From Chloroflexota bacterium (GTDB lineage: Bacteria > Chloroflexota > Anaerolineae > Anaerolineales > Anaerolineaceae), in the NCBI GenBank assembly GCA_021779955.1, contig JAJXZS010000019.1:8476-72475 (forward strand): DNA of 64,000 nt. Reading direction: 5' to 3'. The notes beneath the pieces were generated by a model that was not told the origin of the DNA, searched no databases, and saw nothing but the letters and a program-made list of their open reading frames with translations. The translations under genes and the position numbers were made by a program. Positions 3,794 to 26,069 of this stretch are shown here, piece by piece (positions within the stretch are counted from its first letter, which is position 1; each line of letters begins with the position of its first letter).

Positions 3794-3887
3794 GGGAGTG
3801 AATGGATCCCGGTGGGTTCCTCAGTCTTCAAAACTGGTGGCGGGTCGCTATGCGGGCCGCGGTGGGTTCGACTCCCATTCATTCCCG
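3794..3887 (+). tRNA. selC: tRNA-Sec (anticodon UCA)
   Basis: Hand fold. 8-bp acceptor stem (3794-3801 with 3879-3886). 6-bp D stem (3804-3809 with 3814-3819) and 4-nt loop CGGT. Anticodon loop CTTCAAA with UCA at 3828-3830. Variable arm of about 24 nt. 5-bp T stem with loop TTCGACT. Discriminator G3887. The 8/5 architecture and all three loop sequences match E. coli selC as I remember it. CCA is not fully encoded (CCT). Confidence 0.9.
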
Positions 3888-3916
3888 CCTTTCATGGATA
3901 CTGAACTGGAGTGAAA

Positions 3917-18793: not shown

Positions 18794-19459
18794 TCATTGA
18801 ACAGAGACGATCCTTCCATCCGCGAGATGAACGGTGCGGTCGGCCATACTCGCCAATCGCTCGTCGTGCGTGACCAGCACCACCGTGATCCCCTCGCAGC
18901 GGTGCAGTTCGAGCAGGATTTCCATCACCTTCGCCCCGGAAGCCGAATCGAGGTTGCCGGTGGGCTCATCAGCGAGGATGACCCTGGGATGATTCGTCAG
19001 CGCGCGAGCGATGGCCACACGCTGCTGCTCGCCGCCGGAAAGCTGATCGGGTAGTTGATTGGTCTTATCTTCGAGTCCCATTTTTTGCAGCAACTCGCGG
19101 GCATGAGCGCGGTTCTGGTCCTGTTTCTTGTAGGGGATGAGCGGGTACATCACGTTTTCCAGGGCGGTGAGCTGGGGCAGCAGGTTATAGCTCTGAAAGA
19201 CAAAGCCGACGACATTCCTGCGGTAATCGGCTAGCTGATTACCGTTCAACGAGGTAACGTCGGTGTCGTCGTAGAAGATCTGCCCGCCGGTGGGCTTGTC
19301 CAGCGTGCCGATGAGATTCAGGAGCGTGGTCTTGCCCGAGCCTGAAGGCCCAGTGATGGATACAAACTCGTGGTCCTGAACGTCCAGGCAGATGCCATCC
19401 AGCGCCTGGAAGTTCACCCCATCGCCATAGGTTTTATCGACGTCGATCAAGCGGATCAT
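18794..19459 (-). CDS. ABC transporter ATP-binding protein (MacB/LolD type)
   Basis: GPSGSGKTT Walker A, LSGGEQQRVAIARAL signature, ILADEPTGNLD Walker B. Overlaps the permease stop by 4 nt. Confidence 0.9.
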   Translation of the reverse strand: MIRLIDVDKTYGDGVNFQALDGICLDVQDHEFVSITGPSGSGKTTLLNLIGTLDKPTGGQIFYDDTDVTSLNGNQLADYRRNVVGFVFQSYNLLPQLTALENVMYPLIPYKKQDQNRAHARELLQKMGLEDKTNQLPDQLSGGEQQRVAIARALTNHPRVILADEPTGNLDSASGAKVMEILLELHRCEGITVVLVTHDERLASMADRTVHLADGRIVSVQ

Positions 19460-21969
19460 GATTTCCTCCGGGTTCGAAAGATGAGTGAAGAGGTGGACGA
19501 TTTAAGTTCGATTTGCTTGCGTATGGCCAGGAACGAGGTGGCAATGCAGGCCAGTGTGGGCAGCAGCACCCCGGTGGCAAGTACGACGACCCCGGCGGTG
19601 GAAGAGACCTCCAGGCTGCCCCCCAGGGCGCGGTTGATCAGGATCGAGAGGACAACCCCGATCGCGCCACCGATCAGCCCGATGATGCCAGATTGCCACA
19701 GGTAGAGCTTGCGGACTTCCTTCTTCCTCCAGCCGATGGCGTTGGTGACGGCAATCTCGTGGTGCTCGAGTTGCACCCGGTTGCGGATGTAGATGGCAAT
19801 GGCCACCACCGCCATCAAGAGCCCCGTGAGGGTCAGGAAGAAATGGGAGGGCTGGAGTTTGACCACCAGGTACTGGCCCAGGAGCGTGCCGCCCAGGTAA
19901 CCACGCTGGCTGTCGAAGGCGATGATCAGGTAGCACAGGAGCGCCATGCTCAGCGCCACTCCCGCAATGTTGAGCAGTGATTGCAGCGGGGAACGGACGA
20001 GCGAGTTCAGAGCGATGCGCAAGATCGAATTCGATGGCAGCAGGCGCACAGTCTTGCTGTCGGCGTGGTCGCGGATCACCTCCACAGGCGCGGCGCGGCT
20101 GGCGATGAGGGCGGGAGCCAGGCTGCCCAGGATGGAAATGCCCAGTACAATGGCGGTCGCCTCAATGAAGATCAGCGGTTGCGGCATGGCGAGCTTGAAG
20201 ATCAACGCCACCGCGAGCGCGACCAGACAGGAGACCAACGCGCAGGCCAGGCTGATGCCCGCCGCCTTGCCCAGCTCGAAGCGCAGCAGACTGCCCGTGC
20301 GCCAGCCCAGGGCTTTGCTCAGGGCAAATTCGCGCCTCCGGTTATAGGCATCCATCCAGTTGTATTCGAAGATCGCCAGGAACGAGACGAAGCCGAAGAC
20401 CGACAACATCAACCGGTTGGCCAGCGAGAGCCCCTCGCTATAGTTTGTGGCCACGCCTTTCTGGATCCACATCTCCTCGACGTAACCCACCCCGGGGATG
20501 TGCACCAGCACCGGGCGGGGCGATGAGCCCACCACGATATCCACGTCGAGCCCGGTCTGTTCGTGGATGGCAGTGGCGACGGACTCGATCTTCTGCTCGG
20601 CTTCATTGGAATAGCTGTCGATGCCTGCCACGCGCACGCGAATGGCGCTGATGCAGTTGTCGCCGGCGATCGTCCGCGCTGCGGTGATGGTCGTCAGCAT
20701 CAGTGGCGGGCTGGTGAACCACGAAGAGTCAAAGGCGGAGGGCAGCACCGGCTGCGGGTCGACAGGATTGCGGTTCTCGTCGTAGAGCAGTGTGCCGCCT
20801 GGCGGAAAATAAGTTTCCACGGGTACCTGGTTGATCTCGTTGGGTTTGGGGATTCTCGCGATGTCATAGATCCCGACAGCATAGAGGCCGAATGTGATTT
20901 CTTTATAGGATGGGTCAATTGCTTTCACCTGCGGTTGAGCCTCGACCGCAAGCACCAGTTTTTCAGGGTCGGCTGCAATTGAAGGTTCCAACTGGTAGGT
21001 AACAGGGATAAAGCCCTCGAAGTTGTTGAGGTTATCGATTAGCAAACCTCCCGACTTTATCTGAAATTGCTCGATAAAGAAGGGATACGCGTCTATGCTT
21101 TCGAACGGACCAATTTGATCCACCACATGCGATGGCAATTTATCGAGGTATTCCGTGCCTCCCAAAGACACGATTGCTTCGGGTGATGAATTTTCTTCAG
21201 GCACGTCCACCTGTTCCAGTTTTACCGTAATGGAATAGGAGGTATAAGGATAATTGTTGATCACCACGGGGAACTTGCCTTCAGGCGCAGTCATTTTGCC
21301 AAGGTACAATCCCTGGATAATGCTCTGATCCAATTTGAACAGCCTGGCTTCCTGTTGCGGATCGATGCCAGCAAGAGGGATATTGGAAGGAATACCAAAC
21401 CCAGAGAAATTTTTCGATACATAAACCCCGGGGCTGACCATTTCGAAGTCCGTCTCATTGGCATCAGGCAAGACAATCTTGTAGGAGCGGTCTATCATCG
21501 ATTCAATTCGGAAGCCTTCATTCGATTTATGTTCCGTTTCGATTGCGTATACTCCAGGGCTAACTGAAACAAAGGTTTTTTCCTGTTCATCAGTTCTCAT
21601 CGCTGATTTGGCTGAAAAAAAGGGAAATGATCCGAGATTCGCGATGGGCGCAGCCACATCCACGCCTGGGATCGTCTTGATTGCTTCGTATTGCGCAAAG
21701 GAGATGGCGCCTTTGATGTTGTTCTGGTAATTCGGTTCCACCAGGTTGTATTGCGTTTCGATAGCCGAGTGCGAACCTTTTGGCCGCACCAGGATATCGT
21801 AGGATGTACGCCAGTAGTCCAAGATCGCTTTGTTCGCGGTCACCAGGCTGGTGGCTGAGAGCTGATAGAAGATCAGGGCTGAGGATGTCGCAATGATAAT
21901 GATGAGTGGTAGAAAAAGCTGTGGTTTGCCGCTCTTTTTTACAGGAATTTTGAGATGAAGTCTGTACAT
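19456..21969 (-). CDS. large FtsX/MacB-type ABC permease (837 aa) with large extracytoplasmic domain
   Basis: C-terminal FtsX-like TM bundles and a long periplasmic-type segment after TM1. AGGGGG RBS sits ahead of the ATG at 21969. Confidence 0.8.
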   Translation of the reverse strand: MYRLHLKIPVKKSGKPQLFLPLIIIIATSSALIFYQLSATSLVTANKAILDYWRTSYDILVRPKGSHSAIETQYNLVEPNYQNNIKGAISFAQYEAIKTIPGVDVAAPIANLGSFPFFSAKSAMRTDEQEKTFVSVSPGVYAIETEHKSNEGFRIESMIDRSYKIVLPDANETDFEMVSPGVYVSKNFSGFGIPSNIPLAGIDPQQEARLFKLDQSIIQGLYLGKMTAPEGKFPVVINNYPYTSYSITVKLEQVDVPEENSSPEAIVSLGGTEYLDKLPSHVVDQIGPFESIDAYPFFIEQFQIKSGGLLIDNLNNFEGFIPVTYQLEPSIAADPEKLVLAVEAQPQVKAIDPSYKEITFGLYAVGIYDIARIPKPNEINQVPVETYFPPGGTLLYDENRNPVDPQPVLPSAFDSSWFTSPPLMLTTITAARTIAGDNCISAIRVRVAGIDSYSNEAEQKIESVATAIHEQTGLDVDIVVGSSPRPVLVHIPGVGYVEEMWIQKGVATNYSEGLSLANRLMLSVFGFVSFLAIFEYNWMDAYNRRREFALSKALGWRTGSLLRFELGKAAGISLACALVSCLVALAVALIFKLAMPQPLIFIEATAIVLGISILGSLAPALIASRAAPVEVIRDHADSKTVRLLPSNSILRIALNSLVRSPLQSLLNIAGVALSMALLCYLIIAFDSQRGYLGGTLLGQYLVVKLQPSHFFLTLTGLLMAVVAIAIYIRNRVQLEHHEIAVTNAIGWRKKEVRKLYLWQSGIIGLIGGAIGVVLSILINRALGGSLEVSSTAGVVVLATGVLLPTLACIATSFLAIRKQIELKSSTSSLIFRTRRKS

Positions 21970-22215
21970 TTACGCCCCCTTGAGAGTCGGAAGTCTCAAA
22001 TGCTGTAAAAACTCTTGAATATTGCGACGAACATACGAAATTACAGAGCTACATAATAATAATAAAGAATGCTTGATGTAAAGATTATGAATGAAGTGTG
22101 AAGAATTATCGAGAACGCAAATCCAATTGGATATTTTAAGAAAGAAAATTAAAATTGCATCCAATAGAATGCAGATGATGCAAAAATCAATGGAAAATTG
22201 ATCAAGTGCACTCAC
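21970..22215 (-). CDS. questionable small hydrophobic ORF (81 aa, GTG start) abutting the permease start
   Basis: Its TAA stop touches the permease ATG. Very AT-rich with no recognisable family, so it may simply be promoter DNA. Confidence 0.2.
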   Translation of the reverse strand: MSALDQFSIDFCIICILLDAILIFFLKISNWICVLDNSSHFIHNLYIKHSLLLLCSSVISYVRRNIQEFLQHLRLPTLKGA

Positions 22216-22230
22216 TTATGCCTGAAAGAG

Positions 22231-22272
22231 CCATGACATTCTCCGAAAGATTATCATCGGAGAATGTCATGG
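22231..22272 (-). other. perfect 16-bp stem-loop 3' of the Cys-rich protein gene
   Basis: CCATGACATTCTCCGA, 10-nt loop, TCGGAGAATGTCATGG. No U-tract on the minus strand, so this may be a stabiliser, processing site or attenuator rather than a classical terminator. Confidence 0.6.
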
Positions 22273-22290
22273 CAAGACTAGACGAGTTTT

Positions 22291-22587
22291 TCAACAACCG
22301 AGACACATTCCCGCGCCATCATCATGCCAAGGTCCACAGTACGGATCACAGGTATTACAGGTCCTTACTTCCTCATGATAGTAAAAACCTGGCCTTCCAG
22401 AAGTAGCGCATGATCCGCAGGAATCCGCTGTCCAACGGGTTTGTGAATAATCCTCACAGATTACGTTGGGGCTTATCTTTCCCGCAGCAATTACTCGAGT
22501 GGCTCCAGTTGCAGCGATCGCAAGCATTGCGAGTGCAAATATAGCCAAGAAAAGCAGCACAACCTTGAAATTACGATTGACAGACAT
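22291..22587 (-). CDS. secreted cysteine-rich small protein (99 aa precursor, 8 Cys in the last ~60 aa), no recognised family
   Basis: ATG at 22587 follows AAAGGGGA. Signal-peptide-like MSVNRNFKVVLLFLAIFALAMLAIAATGA. C-terminal region ICEDYSQTRWTADSCGSCATSGRPGFYYHEEVRTCNTCDPYCGPWHDDGAGMCLGC. Confidence 0.65.
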   Translation of the reverse strand: MSVNRNFKVVLLFLAIFALAMLAIAATGATRVIAAGKISPNVICEDYSQTRWTADSCGSCATSGRPGFYYHEEVRTCNTCDPYCGPWHDDGAGMCLGC

Positions 22588-22682
22588 GTTTTCCCCTTTC
22601 GTTGAATTTCCAGAATAGTTGATCCGACGAGAATTTGTCCACCACACTGCAATTCCCACCTATTTGGTTCATTTTCCTCTTT

Positions 22683-23240
22683 TCATTCAGAAGTGCGCGG
22701 TTTGGCTAATTGCTGTAGATCCTCGAATGTTGCAGGAACCCCAGAATTCAGGATTTTGCCGCCTTTGTCGATCAGGTAAACAAACGGTGTTCCTGGAACG
22801 ATGTATTGAGTAGATATTTCTTCTTTCCATTCTGCCTCAACAAATCGAAATCCATTATCAGAGATCATTTGATTTATTTCTTCTTTTGTCCCCAAAGAAA
22901 ACATGAATATGTTATGAGTTGGATTTTTGTCTGAAAATTCCTTCAAGTACGGATATAGATACTGGCAATGGGGACAAGTAGTCGATGAAAAGATCAACAT
23001 AGTAGGTTGTGAAAAGAGATCACTTGAAGCAAACGTTTTTCCATCAATTGTATTAACTGTGAATGAAGGTGCAAGCTTTCCATCCTCCAGACCCAAGACT
23101 TGGGCAGGCTGGCCTGCAAGCCCCAACATGGACTCAATGCGATTTATCCGTATCAGGATAAAAACTATTGAGCCAATCAATATGATTACAATTCCAAGAA
23201 AAACGTACATGAACCCTTGCAATGAATCAGTCTTTTTCAT
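22683..23240 (-). CDS. membrane-anchored TlpA/ResA-like thiol-disulfide oxidoreductase (thioredoxin fold)
   Basis: N-terminal TM. FSSTTCPHCQYLYP has the CxxC active site. ATG at 23240 follows AGAGGA. The ORF track starts at 23264. Confidence 0.8.
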   Translation of the reverse strand: MKKTDSLQGFMYVFLGIVIILIGSIVFILIRINRIESMLGLAGQPAQVLGLEDGKLAPSFTVNTIDGKTFASSDLFSQPTMLIFSSTTCPHCQYLYPYLKEFSDKNPTHNIFMFSLGTKEEINQMISDNGFRFVEAEWKEEISTQYIVPGTPFVYLIDKGGKILNSGVPATFEDLQQLAKPRTSE

Positions 23241-23743
23241 AGCTATCCTCTTTGAAATGGTCAATCACAATGTAGGCTGAAGCATTAAATGGTATATAGT
23301 CATCAAATTCGATTACAAAACTCACCATGCTGCGAATTCAATAAAATCCTCACCTCCTTAATTGTTGGCTTTCTGTTTTGAACATTTAGGTCAGAAGTGA
23401 CCTGATTCTCTGTTTTTCTTTTCTCGATTACCGAAGCACTTCTGTACGCAGCCAGATAATTGGCTACTATCTCCCACCTATTGCGATTCTACTATCATGA
23501 TACAGCATGATAGAGAATGAGGTAGGATGCAAAATTGAGCTCAATAATCGGTTTTTTAAGATTACTAATGTAATAATCCAAAATCGCCACCCACATGCCA
23601 AAAAAAGTCCAAAAACATGATATTCGAATTTGTAGACCCCGCCTTCTACAATTCGATTTTCCGATCGCCAAATCACAGCTATTCTAGCTGAGGGAACATC
23701 TGGCGCTTTGTAAGAGTGTGGATTCGAACCCTTTGACCAACTT

Positions 23744-23783
23744 AAACAAAAATCCCCAGGCTCACCTTTCGACCTCGGGGATT
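23744..23783 (-). terminator. intrinsic terminator downstream of tRNA-Ser
   Basis: The minus strand reads AATCCCCGAGG...CCTGGGGATT followed by TTTTGTTT. Confidence 0.7.
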
Positions 23784-23880
23784 ACTGCACTTCCTAATCA
23801 CTAATTACTAATCACTAAGCCCTGTTCTTCTAGCGGAGAGGGCTGGGAACCGCCCTCGGAGCCGAACGAATTTTGTCTAG

Positions 23881-23966
23881 CGGAGAGGGTGGGATTCGAA
23901 CCCACGATACCTTGCGGTATACCCGCTCTCCAAGCGGGCGCGTTAGGCCAACTGCGCAACCTCTCC
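23881..23966 (-). tRNA. tRNA-Ser (anticodon GGA)
   Basis: Reverse complement folds as a class II tRNA. Acceptor GGAGAGG/CCTCTCC, anticodon stem CCCGC/GCGGG with loop TTGGAGA, 16-nt variable arm, T arm GTGGG-TTCGAAT-CCCAC, discriminator G. CCA is not encoded. Confidence 0.9.
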
Positions 23967-25050: not shown

Positions 25051-25084
25051 CCGGACAGGCATGATGACCTGTCCGGTGCGTTTT
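25051..25084. terminator. bidirectional intrinsic terminator
   Basis: CCGGACAGG / CCTGTCCGG stem. TGCGTTTT follows on the plus strand and TTTTCTTTATT on the minus strand. Confidence 0.75.
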
Positions 25085-26069
25085 ACTTGCCCCAATCCAC
25101 CTGGAGGGATTTTCGCTTGCGCAGATATTTTTCGACAGCCATGCCGGCGATTGCACCATCTGCGGCGGCCACAACCGCCTGCTTTACGTGATCCTTGAGC
25201 AAGTCACCAACCGCATAAACACCCTCGAGCTCGGTCTGGTACTCCGCGTTGACCGTCAGGTAACCGTGCTCGTCGCGCTTCAACTGACCCTCGAGGAACT
25301 CGGTATCCGGTTTTCCACCCTGCAAATAAATGAACACGCCTTTGACGTCAAGCGACTGCTCGCCCACCCCGCGCAAGCCAAATTTGACGCCGCTGACCTT
25401 TCCGTCGCCGACCACTTCTCGTAGAGACGCCCCAGGGTACACCTGAACCTTGGGATGGCGCTGGATCTCTTCCGCCAGCTCGACAGGCGCCTTCAACTCC
25501 GGAGTAGGGCTGAGGAAATGCACCTTATCGGCAAACCGGGTGAGGAAAAGCGCTTCTTCGATGGATTCGTCGTTGTTGCCTGCGACAGCGACTTCCTGGT
25601 TGCGAAAGAACGCCCCATCGCAGGTAGCGCAGTAGGATACGCCGTGCCCAAGCAGATCGTCCTCGCCCTTGACCCGGGTTCCGCGCCCAAGCGAACCCAT
25701 CCCCAGGATGACCGCTTTGGCAGTATAGCTGCCGCCGTTGCCGATTAGTGTTTTGACCGGTCCAACCAGATCAACTCCAACTACCTTGTCTGTGATAAAT
25801 TTCGCGCCAAACGACGCGGCCTGGTTGCGAATGCGTTCAAGCAATTCGCTTCCGCTGACCTCTTCCGTCACGCCGGGGTAATTACCGATTTTCGAAGTGA
25901 TGCCCAGGGCGCCAACCGTCAACCCACGATCGATGACAGCGGTTTTCAGACCGGCGCGAGAGGTATAAATCGCGGCAGTGGCTCCGGCCGGCCCGCCGCC
26001 AATAATCAAAACGTCATATTCAGGCTCATCCTGCATATCGCTTTGAGGTATGTTCAAATCTAAATCCAT
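25083..26069 (-). CDS. trxB: thioredoxin-disulfide reductase
   Basis: GGGPAG FAD motif, redox-active CATCDG, NADPH-binding GGGNSA-like region. Confidence 0.9.
   Translation of the reverse strand: MDLDLNIPQSDMQDEPEYDVLIIGGGPAGATAAIYTSRAGLKTAVIDRGLTVGALGITSKIGNYPGVTEEVSGSELLERIRNQAASFGAKFITDKVVGVDLVGPVKTLIGNGGSYTAKAVILGMGSLGRGTRVKGEDDLLGHGVSYCATCDGAFFRNQEVAVAGNNDESIEEALFLTRFADKVHFLSPTPELKAPVELAEEIQRHPKVQVYPGASLREVVGDGKVSGVKFGLRGVGEQSLDVKGVFIYLQGGKPDTEFLEGQLKRDEHGYLTVNAEYQTELEGVYAVGDLLKDHVKQAVVAAADGAIAGMAVEKYLRKRKSLQVDWGK

Follow-up and report, generated by a model that had tools for sequence, protein, structure and literature searches.

We analysed a stretch of 64,000 nucleotides from a Chloroflexota bacterium (contig JAJXZS010000019.1; the whole of this stretch is called the window) and identified on its minus strand, at 22291-22587, a gene for a small cysteine-rich protein that is predicted to be exported. 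Its conservation in relatives and the ratio of non-synonymous to synonymous divergence (dN/dS) exclude a spurious open reading frame (ORF), and on this evidence the gene is genuine. Judged from its translation and gene order, it represents a new and very small family of predicted exported eight-cysteine proteins that have an oxidoreductase of their own, in an arrangement like that of known export or immunity systems of disulfide-containing peptides.

22291-22587, minus strand: gene for the eight-cysteine small protein, a 98-amino-acid precursor with its stop codon at 22291-22293, recognised from its translation and homologues
22486-22587, minus strand: predicted Sec signal peptide, residues 1-34, with a basic n-region, a hydrophobic core of 18-19 residues and a V-I-A motif
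22294-22485, minus strand: predicted mature domain of about 64 amino acids with eight cysteines, an isoelectric point (pI) of about 4.7 and a mass of about 6.9 kDa, from translation, alignment and composition

The ORF that opens with the ATG at 22587 has 99 codons including the stop and encodes 98 residues (MSVNRNFKVVLLFLAIFALAMLAIAATGATRVIAAGKISPNVICEDYSQTRWTADSCGSCATSGRPGFYYHEEVRTCNTCDPYCGPWHDDGAGMCLGC); an earlier reading made from the letters of the DNA (the sequence-only reading) had given the precursor as 99 amino acids. An alternative longer frame of 122 amino acids begins with a GTG at 22659, and the 98-residue form is preferred because the N-termini of all homologues align with the ATG of the window and none with the upstream GTG. 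The N-terminus, previously likened to a signal peptide, does show by hydropathy a single hydrophobic segment (residues 9-27) after a basic beginning and, on inspection, the small residues at -3 and -1 of a Sec signal peptide. Hydropathy and alignment together served to judge the signal peptide, whose cleavage site was placed by inspection. A (V/A)-x-A motif stands at one aligned position in all homologues and provides candidate signal peptidase I sites, V-I-A in the window protein, V-S-A in that of the closest relative (contig L173), A-N-A in P0003 and P0006 and V-E-A in P0005. The small-protein sequence contains no lipobox, sortase signal or PEP-CTERM signal.

The eight cysteines are present in the order in which they had been quoted, and the mature part of the window protein follows the pattern C-x13-CGSC-x16-CNTC-x3-CGPW-x7-CLGC. 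Members of the family share one layout, in which the signal peptide and its (V/A)-x-A motif are followed after about nine residues by the scaffold C-x13-CGxC-x~15-C[ND]xC-x3-CxxW-x5-7-CxxC. Ten positions are invariant in the alignment (P40, C44, G58, C60, C77, C80, C84, W87, C95 and C98), and the three CxxC pairs are kept in five of the six members. The number of cysteines among the homologues is always even (8, 8, 8, 8 and 10), and in P0005 the first cysteine of the CGxC pair is replaced by valine while two extra cysteines appear elsewhere. Because the counts are even and P0005 has shifted one cysteine and added two, pairing into disulfides would fit the family better than Cys4 metal knuckles. 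Across the family the mature peptides are acidic to neutral, with pI values of 4.7-6.1.

No recognisable family could be assigned, in agreement with the sequence-only reading. Neither Pfam nor NCBIfam gave anything significant for any of the six family members; the best Pfam matches, TACI-CRD2 (E = 0.055) and FtrD-like (E = 0.1), were below cut-off and confined to one of the six members each, NCBIfam searched with the small protein returned no match at E ≤ 0.1, models of ribosomally synthesised and post-translationally modified peptides (RiPPs) included, and a profile search of the PDB yielded a single match at E = 7. In a word-indexed search of 5.8 billion proteins the small protein matched only itself. 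Exhaustive phmmer comparison with 1.84 billion representative proteins recovered two small homologues, P0003 (96 amino acids, E = 5e-5) and P0005 (103 amino acids, E = 8e-4), to which a profile search added P0006, and a fourth homologue was found by reading the ORFs of the syntenic contig L173:

L173 1330-1614, plus strand: 94-amino-acid family member, found in the ORF listing and missed by the gene caller

These four other distinct homologues are 30-38% identical, and L063 encodes a form of P0003 with a variant leader. In L173 the gene caller had annotated a 75-amino-acid antisense ORF (1426-1653) in place of the family member; since gene callers miss the family in this way, protein databases probably contain fewer members than exist. 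The 98-amino-acid protein of the window is itself recorded only from an ENA contig, with a 118-amino-acid variant from a Logan contig and none from NCBI; the recorded sources of the neighbouring TlpA-like protein include NCBI. Two further matches, P0002 (5285 amino acids, E = 5e-10) and P0004 (1925 amino acids), were rejected as spurious repeat adhesin-like proteins; in P0002 cysteine-free repeats sum up weak scores.

All named genomes with the family are metagenome-assembled genomes (MAGs) of Chloroflexota or Anaerolineae. A degenerate DNA motif scan for [VI]R-x-C-[ND]-x-C-x3-C-G-x-W, which would miss members like P0005 or that of L173, gave 69 matches in GTDB species genomes, two of them real (L046 and L063, from the Chloroflexota MAG CFX10 and the Anaerolineae MAG DTUCFX7), and 93 matches in JGI metagenome contigs, none of them a real member. 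The source of CFX10 was a freshwater anammox reactor (PMC7358590). The metagenome contigs L137 and L150 carry the string RVRxCDPCxxxCGxWS within FG-GAP-like proteins, in open frames of 778 and 1099 amino acids; it resembles the family core R-x-C-[ND]-x-C-x3-C-G-P-W, by chance or possibly as a shared mini-motif. Independent assemblies of the organism of the window (L001, L174, L175 and L176, 99.8-100% identical where compared) break into contigs of 2-3.7 kb right at the small-gene locus, which may reflect strain heterogeneity or a drop of coverage in its low-G+C block. Among the matches listed in an exact search with the ATP-binding cassette (ABC) ATPase sequence of the locus is only one short contig of the same organism, which does not extend as far as the small gene.

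The genes on either side are those that had been claimed, a gene of the TlpA/Redoxin fold upstream and an FtsX permease with an ABC ATPase downstream:

22683-23264, minus strand: predicted membrane-anchored extracytoplasmic thiol-disulfide oxidoreductase of the TlpA/Redoxin fold, active site CPHC
19456-21969, minus strand: FtsX/MacB-type (type VII ABC) permease of 837 amino acids, matched twice by Pfam FtsX (E = 2.6e-17)
18794-19459, minus strand: MacB/LolD-type ABC ATPase (Pfam ABC_tran, E = 6e-35), its start overlapping the permease stop by 4 nt

The oxidoreductase probably starts with the ATG at 23240, which gives 185 amino acids (185-193 overall), and has a transmembrane segment at residues 20-38 after a basic N-terminus by hydropathy. 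Redoxin, AhpC-TSA and Thioredoxin_8 of Pfam all score above their cut-offs (36.7, 35.9 and 29.3 bits against 27, 26 and 26.6), the SCO1-SenC score of 22.8 bits falls exactly at its cut-off of 22.8, and the best NCBIfam matches (MauD, ResA, StoA, DsbE, TrbB and PedC/BrcD) are all far below theirs. Domain, CxxC motif and predicted extracytoplasmic location are thus those of a TlpA/Redoxin-type thiol-disulfide oxidoreductase. The permease begins about 320 nt downstream of the small gene. Its hydropathy indicates a first transmembrane segment, an extracytoplasmic domain of about 480 amino acids (residues ~36-515) and seven further transmembrane segments; the extracellular domain has no Pfam match, and against the PDB the permease gives a weak MacB match. 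For the ATPase, LolD, MacB, DevA and L_ocin_972_ABC of NCBIfam are all below cut-off. The pair has the make-up of a type VII ABC transporter: an FtsX domain, a large loop past the first transmembrane segment and a separate ABC ATPase.

Comparison of the loci shows which of these neighbours is constant. The order in the window is tRNA-Ser, TlpA-like gene, small gene, hairpin, FtsX and ABC. L173 has the same order of TlpA, small gene, FtsX and ABC, likewise downstream of a tRNA-Ser flank. In L006, an NCBI MAG, the TlpA-like gene and the small gene are followed by an 890-amino-acid double solute-binding protein without ABC or FtsX. The CFX10-type genomes (L007, L046 and L063) have tig, clpP, clpX, the small gene, a secreted protein of 388-413 amino acids and a DsbA/Thioredoxin_4 gene, the last lying two genes downstream of the small gene with its start overlapping the preceding gene. 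The TlpA-fold orthologues directly upstream of the small gene are 56-57% (L173) and 37% (L006) identical to that of the window, and all the neighbouring oxidoreductases carry an N-terminal transmembrane anchor. From these four recovered contexts the invariant partner is a membrane-anchored extracytoplasmic thiol-disulfide oxidoreductase, and the transporter is lineage-specific. Co-occurrence with TlpA-like and FtsX/MacB genes, proposed earlier as a check, was therefore upheld for the oxidoreductase, TlpA-like at three loci and replaced by a DsbA-like enzyme in the fourth lineage, and only in part for FtsX/ABC, present in just two of the four lineages. Between the window and L006 the oxidoreductases are 37% and the small proteins 34% identical, so that small gene and oxidoreductase appear to be inherited together as a pair.

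In the CFX10-type genomes the intervening secreted protein (L007 4343-5509 and its equivalents in L046 and L063) has no Pfam match. With dN 0.18 and dS 0.60 its evolution is fairly fast, and the hyper-divergent segment that holds the mature part of the small protein also takes in the N-terminus of this secreted protein. The 388-amino-acid form was considered as a relative of the FtsX extracellular domain and set aside when no similarity was found.

A mobile-element origin was likewise rejected. Searches of plasmid and phage collections by tblastn gave no match to the small protein, and because tRNA-Ser adjoins the locus in both the window and L173, the locus looks vertically inherited and not a recent island, despite its low G+C content.

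The exported part of the protein diverges unusually fast, as would be expected of a toxin-like or recognition molecule. Window and L173 compare as follows:

Small protein: 37% amino acid identity; mature part dN 0.81, dS saturated
TlpA-like protein: 56% amino acid identity; dN 0.33, dS saturated
FtsX extracellular domain: about 45% amino acid identity; dN 0.41, dS saturated
FtsX residues 401 to end: about 88% amino acid identity; dN 0.11, dS 0.8
ATPase: 89% amino acid identity over the 148 residues present on the L173 contig; dN 0.06, dS 1.1

Two blocks emerge, one of high divergence made up of the small protein, TlpA and the FtsX extracellular domain, and one of low divergence with the membrane half of FtsX and the ATPase. 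A low-G+C block (38-47% against 55-63% around it; window 20750-23750, L173 1-2750) covers both the TlpA-like and the small gene but, of the FtsX gene, only the half that encodes the N-terminal, extracellular region. Its edge within ftsX, where G+C changes from 56-63% to 38-47%, has a matching position in the two contigs. In the CFX10-type lineage, P0003 and P0006 have identical N-terminal regions of 44 residues with two synonymous changes (dS 0.06), while their mature parts differ with dN 0.315, dS 1.19 and dN/dS 0.26; for the adjacent clpX of the two genomes dS is 0.37 and dN 0.009. The opposite is seen in two MAGs with an overall identity of 94.6%, which share the same mature allele (one of 159 nt differs) and have leaders that differ at nine positions. 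The scaffold of the mature part is under purifying selection in the two alleles compared, so that the conservation and selection on which the sequence-only reading had made its proposal depend are both present. With two alleles per lineage, the pattern is suggestive of a mature part that can be exchanged, as a deeply diverged allele, independently of the genome background.

The signals around the gene are of uneven quality:

22593-22598, minus strand: Shine-Dalgarno-like AAGGGG, 5 nt before the ATG
22612-22641, minus strand: promoter candidate TGGACA-18-TATTCT, weak, matching at 9 of 12 positions
22230-22273, minus strand: main 3′ stem-loop, 17 perfect pairs (22230-22246/22257-22273) around a 10-nt loop
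22146-22173, minus strand: second short hairpin, seven pairs and a T-rich tail, a match to the intrinsic-terminator consensus

The ribosome-binding site had been called good, and the string AAAGGGGAAAA that contains it is kept in L173. The promoter, which had been taken as the gene's own, fared worse: such sites are as frequent as expected by chance (7 in the region against 5.1 ± 2.4 in shuffled sequences) and the candidate at 22641-22612 is not kept in L173, unlike the ribosome-binding string. The small gene may therefore share a transcript with the oxidoreductase gene 95 nt upstream. The stem of the 3′ hairpin is perfect, as had been said, and longer by one pair than the 16 bp given for it. 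It begins 17 nt past the stop of the small gene and has a folding energy of -35.2 kcal/mol against -14.2 ± 2.9 in shuffles (z = -7.4; 0 of 200 shuffles equal), with a tail (TCTTTCAGG) that is a poor U-tract and is not called by a terminator pattern scan. The second hairpin, which has a T-run, is located past the main stem at 22173-22156; it is a consensus match only, of a kind that arises at chance rate in the region. In L173 and L006, too, the small gene is followed by a stem-loop, that of L173 with a T-run; the sequences are unrelated, so the position of the hairpin is conserved and its sequence is not. Given the strength of the stem and this positional conservation, the main stem-loop is probably a 3′-end or stabilising element of the transcript, or an attenuator that precedes the genes of the transporter.

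Taken together, these features fit a Sec-exported effector with four disulfides that is oxidised by its neighbour, acts in bacteriocin-like antagonism or recognition and, in this lineage, is handled by a MacB-type transporter, a reading to which we give about even odds. The course that we infer begins with Sec export of the precursor, whose cleavage after V-I-A at residue 34 would leave about 64 residues outside the cytoplasmic membrane. The CPHC enzyme encoded 95 nt upstream would then oxidise the eight cysteines to four disulfides, and the acidic mini-protein of about 6.9 kDa would be released as an extracellular effector of cell-cell antagonism or recognition. In this lineage the extracellular domain of the FtsX/MacB permease may handle the peptide at the outer face of the membrane, for release or for self-protection, and the stem-loop after the small gene could uncouple the level of the peptide mRNA from that of the transporter mRNA.

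Several points weigh against this reading. TlpA-fold proteins are classically, and often, reductants; the oxidising direction proposed here is uncertain, as it is drawn from the CPHC motif alone. In the CFX10-type lineage and in L006 neither an ABC transporter nor a candidate for an immunity gene adjoins the small gene, so linkage to a transporter is not characteristic of the family. The chromosomal position is conserved (after clpX, or next to tRNA-Ser) and the plasmid and phage collections contain no match, which is less typical of accessory toxin loci. The acidic to neutral mature peptides differ from most membrane-active bacteriocins. Only two alleles per lineage could be compared, and an extracellular domain can outpace the membrane and ATPase domains without any co-evolution. 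AlphaFold2 models of the full-length protein with a four-sequence alignment and of the mature part alone (predicted local distance difference test scores of 50.7 and 47.6) were too poor for fold comparison. The bacteriocin half of the layout suggested by the sequence-only reading stands as a plausible analogy, the acidity of the peptide notwithstanding; its RiPP half is not supported, given the predicted Sec signal and the lack of a modifying enzyme among the ORFs scanned around the locus.

A redox or metal accessory outside the cytoplasm is one alternative. The protein would remain uncleaved on its anchor, have its CxxC motifs reduced by the TlpA-like enzyme and bind copper or zinc or relay electrons, on the model of TlpA-ScoI-CoxB or ResA-type pathways. 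Three CxxC motifs, an acidic peptide, a conserved chromosomal position in the CFX10-type genomes and a neighbour whose TlpA/ResA/SCO1-like fold, at the SCO1-SenC cut-off, is classically that of a reductant would all suit it. Nevertheless we regard such a role as unlikely, since a metal knuckle should not tolerate the loss of the first cysteine of a CxxC and the gain of others seen in P0005, the CPHC active site is of the DsbA type and one lineage has a DsbA-like enzyme instead, and the (V/A)-x-A cleavage motif is conserved. The fast turnover of the non-cysteine residues of the mature part (dN 0.3-0.8) would also be unusual in a housekeeping cofactor carrier, and oxidase, cytochrome and copper genes are not adjacent among the ORFs scanned, which cover about 17.3 to 27.6 kb around the locus.

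The shape of the divergence raises a second alternative, a signalling peptide (a pheromone or kin-recognition cue) read by the polymorphic extracellular domain of FtsX in the manner of agrD/agrC or comX/comP. High divergence is limited to the peptide, the enzyme that matures it and, in the membrane partner, the extracellular half, with the boundary inside a gene, and a second lineage has conserved the leader and swapped the mature part. BceAB-type relatives of MacB act as sensors (PMC5985334). Against this, the window has neither a histidine kinase nor a response regulator gene next to the locus, other lineages are without the FtsX partner and two alleles were compared per lineage; we attach a low probability to it.

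The fast evolution of the exposed part would equally be compatible with a structural mini-protein of the envelope or filament surface of filamentous Anaerolineae, one stabilised by disulfides that takes no part in antagonism or signalling, its surface variation driven by phage or predator pressure. A core-like position kept across three CFX10-type genomes, beside the 388-413-amino-acid secreted protein and the DsbA-like gene, and the acidity of the protein accord with this. We hold it to be quite unlikely, as the sequence has no anchoring motif, the family is very rare in Chloroflexota (two GTDB species genomes and no JGI contigs in the motif scan) and the ABC transporter linkage in two genomes would be left unexplained. 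A RiPP precursor that acquires modifications besides disulfides and leaves the cell through the ABC transporter, a course which the short cysteine-rich precursor followed by a hairpin and ABC genes might recall, is very improbable: the N-terminus has the n/h/c organisation of a classical Sec signal and not of a leader peptide, no radical SAM, LanM/LanB/LanC, YcaO, peptidase-ABC or other maturase gene occurs among the scanned ORFs, the FtsX/MacB-type permease lacks the peptidase domain of a leader-cleaving exporter and no NCBIfam RiPP model matched.

An extension of the effector reading, which we consider doubtful and put forward tentatively, is a polymorphic three-part module of filamentous Chloroflexota in which the secreted four-disulfide mini-protein, an oxidase reserved for it and the type VII permease, through its extracellular domain, co-diversify as allelic cassettes. 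If true, this would bring about strain-specific killing with immunity or kin recognition, and would be a peptide-receptor pherotype system in which an FtsX/MacB scaffold takes the place of the histidine kinase, with a fold without known relatives. Almost nothing is known of secreted effectors or bacteriocins of Chloroflexota, bacteria that form filaments and abound in wastewater and anammox reactors. The locus offers a compact candidate: a protein of about 7 kDa with four putative disulfides, an oxidase that would be its own and, for this lineage, a transporter of the MacB type with an extracellular domain that diverges in parallel. Were the co-diversification real, it would provide a natural system for the recognition of a folded protein ligand by the extracellular domain of a type VII ABC transporter and would add a new disulfide-rich scaffold.

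Around the locus, the scanned ORFs comprise LTD, NYN, ABC, FtsX and TlpA-like proteins, a membrane protein, a 140-amino-acid protein without match, a pyridine nucleotide-disulfide oxidoreductase and a SnoaL-like protein. Farther out, the window has the genes of an ordinary chromosome, among them dnaX, recR, thrS and that of a class A penicillin-binding protein. A hydrophobic ORF of 81 amino acids at 21970-22215 on the minus strand was considered as an immunity gene and rejected, as it is not conserved in L173; it shares the frame of the permease, one stop codon before the permease ATG, and is probably non-coding. The pyridine nucleotide-disulfide oxidoreductase (25083-26069, minus strand; 328 amino acids, Pfam Pyr_redox_2) is thioredoxin-reductase-like in appearance; about 2 kb, with tRNA-Ser in between, separate it from the TlpA-like gene. 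Rfam found only tRNAs over the window. Among the tRNA genes is one for tRNA-SeC with anticodon TCA (3794-3889, plus strand), and the organism therefore decodes selenocysteine. About 150 nt downstream of tRNA-Ser(GGA) at 23880-23966, a tRNA-like 3′ fragment (GGGTTCGAATCCACACTCTTACAAAGCGCCA; 23700-23735, minus strand) with a T-arm-like sequence and a CCA end, called by neither ARAGORN nor Rfam, may be the remnant of an integration site.

The locus recalls a number of described systems to differing degrees. Membership of the pediocin-like (class IIa) bacteriocins is dismissed, since the small-protein sequence has neither a YGNGV box nor a double-glycine leader. The operon of lactococcin 972 consists of a Sec-dependent bacteriocin, a permease and an ABC ATPase, and the window resembles it in layout only (22587-22291, 21969-19456 and 19459-18794, all on the minus strand). 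The window ATPase scores 197.8 bits on TIGR03608 L_ocin_972_ABC, below the cut-off of 254.85 and below its scores on LolD, MacB, DevA and FtsE, the small protein has no Pfam match, and the systems are not homologous; lactococcin 972 has no cysteines (PMC8538875). MauA, the light chain of methylamine dehydrogenase, and MauD likewise pair a cysteine-rich small exported protein with a membrane-anchored TlpA-fold accessory, and MauD (TIGR02661) is the best NCBIfam match of the window oxidoreductase (E = 1.6e-14). Identity with MauD was rejected at 53.8 bits against a cut-off of 188.6, with no mauB, mauE or mauG-type genes among the scanned ORFs, and the small protein matches no Pfam family, that of MauA included.

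In evolutionary pattern only, the locus resembles the agrBDC and comQXP pherotype modules, where hyper-divergence is likewise confined to the peptide, the enzyme that matures it and, of the membrane partner, the extracellular or N-terminal portion, with the rest of the operon conserved. The membrane partner in the window is, however, an ABC permease and not a histidine kinase, and no regulator is adjacent.

Closer in composition are the disulfide-containing bacteriocins that have oxidoreductase genes beside them, as in sublancin (BdbA/BdbB) and enterocin F4-9 (PMC6606811). As in sublancin (sunA-sunT-bdbA-sunS-bdbB), enterocin F4-9 and pediocin, an oxidoreductase gene in the window adjoins those of a small secreted cysteine-containing peptide and a transporter. 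The match of the window oxidoreductase to PedC/BrcD is weak (E = 2.5e-4; 20.9 bits against a cut-off of 120) and does not make it a member. The bacteriocins of those loci have double-glycine leaders, are exported by ABC transporters with a peptidase domain and are in some cases glycosylated, whereas the window has a Sec signal and no glycosyltransferase; the window peptide is acidic and theirs are cationic.

The closest mechanistic precedent is the heat-stable enterotoxin STII (STb) of Escherichia coli, which needs Sec, DsbA and MacB and is expelled by MacAB-TolC (PMC5985334). The window encodes a small predicted Sec precursor, a thiol-disulfide oxidoreductase and a MacB/FtsX transporter side by side. 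The two differ in that the window protein has no sequence similarity to STII and four putative disulfides against its two, that its oxidoreductase is a dedicated TlpA-fold neighbour and not the general DsbA, that MacA adaptor and TolC were not found near the window locus, and that the permease has a duplicated FtsX unit and an extracellular domain of about 480 amino acids without Pfam match. MacB-type transporters act in peptide resistance, in sensing and in the export of AS-48 (PMC5985334), and the handling proposed here for the window peptide would also parallel that by the immunity transporters of Gram-positive bacteriocins.

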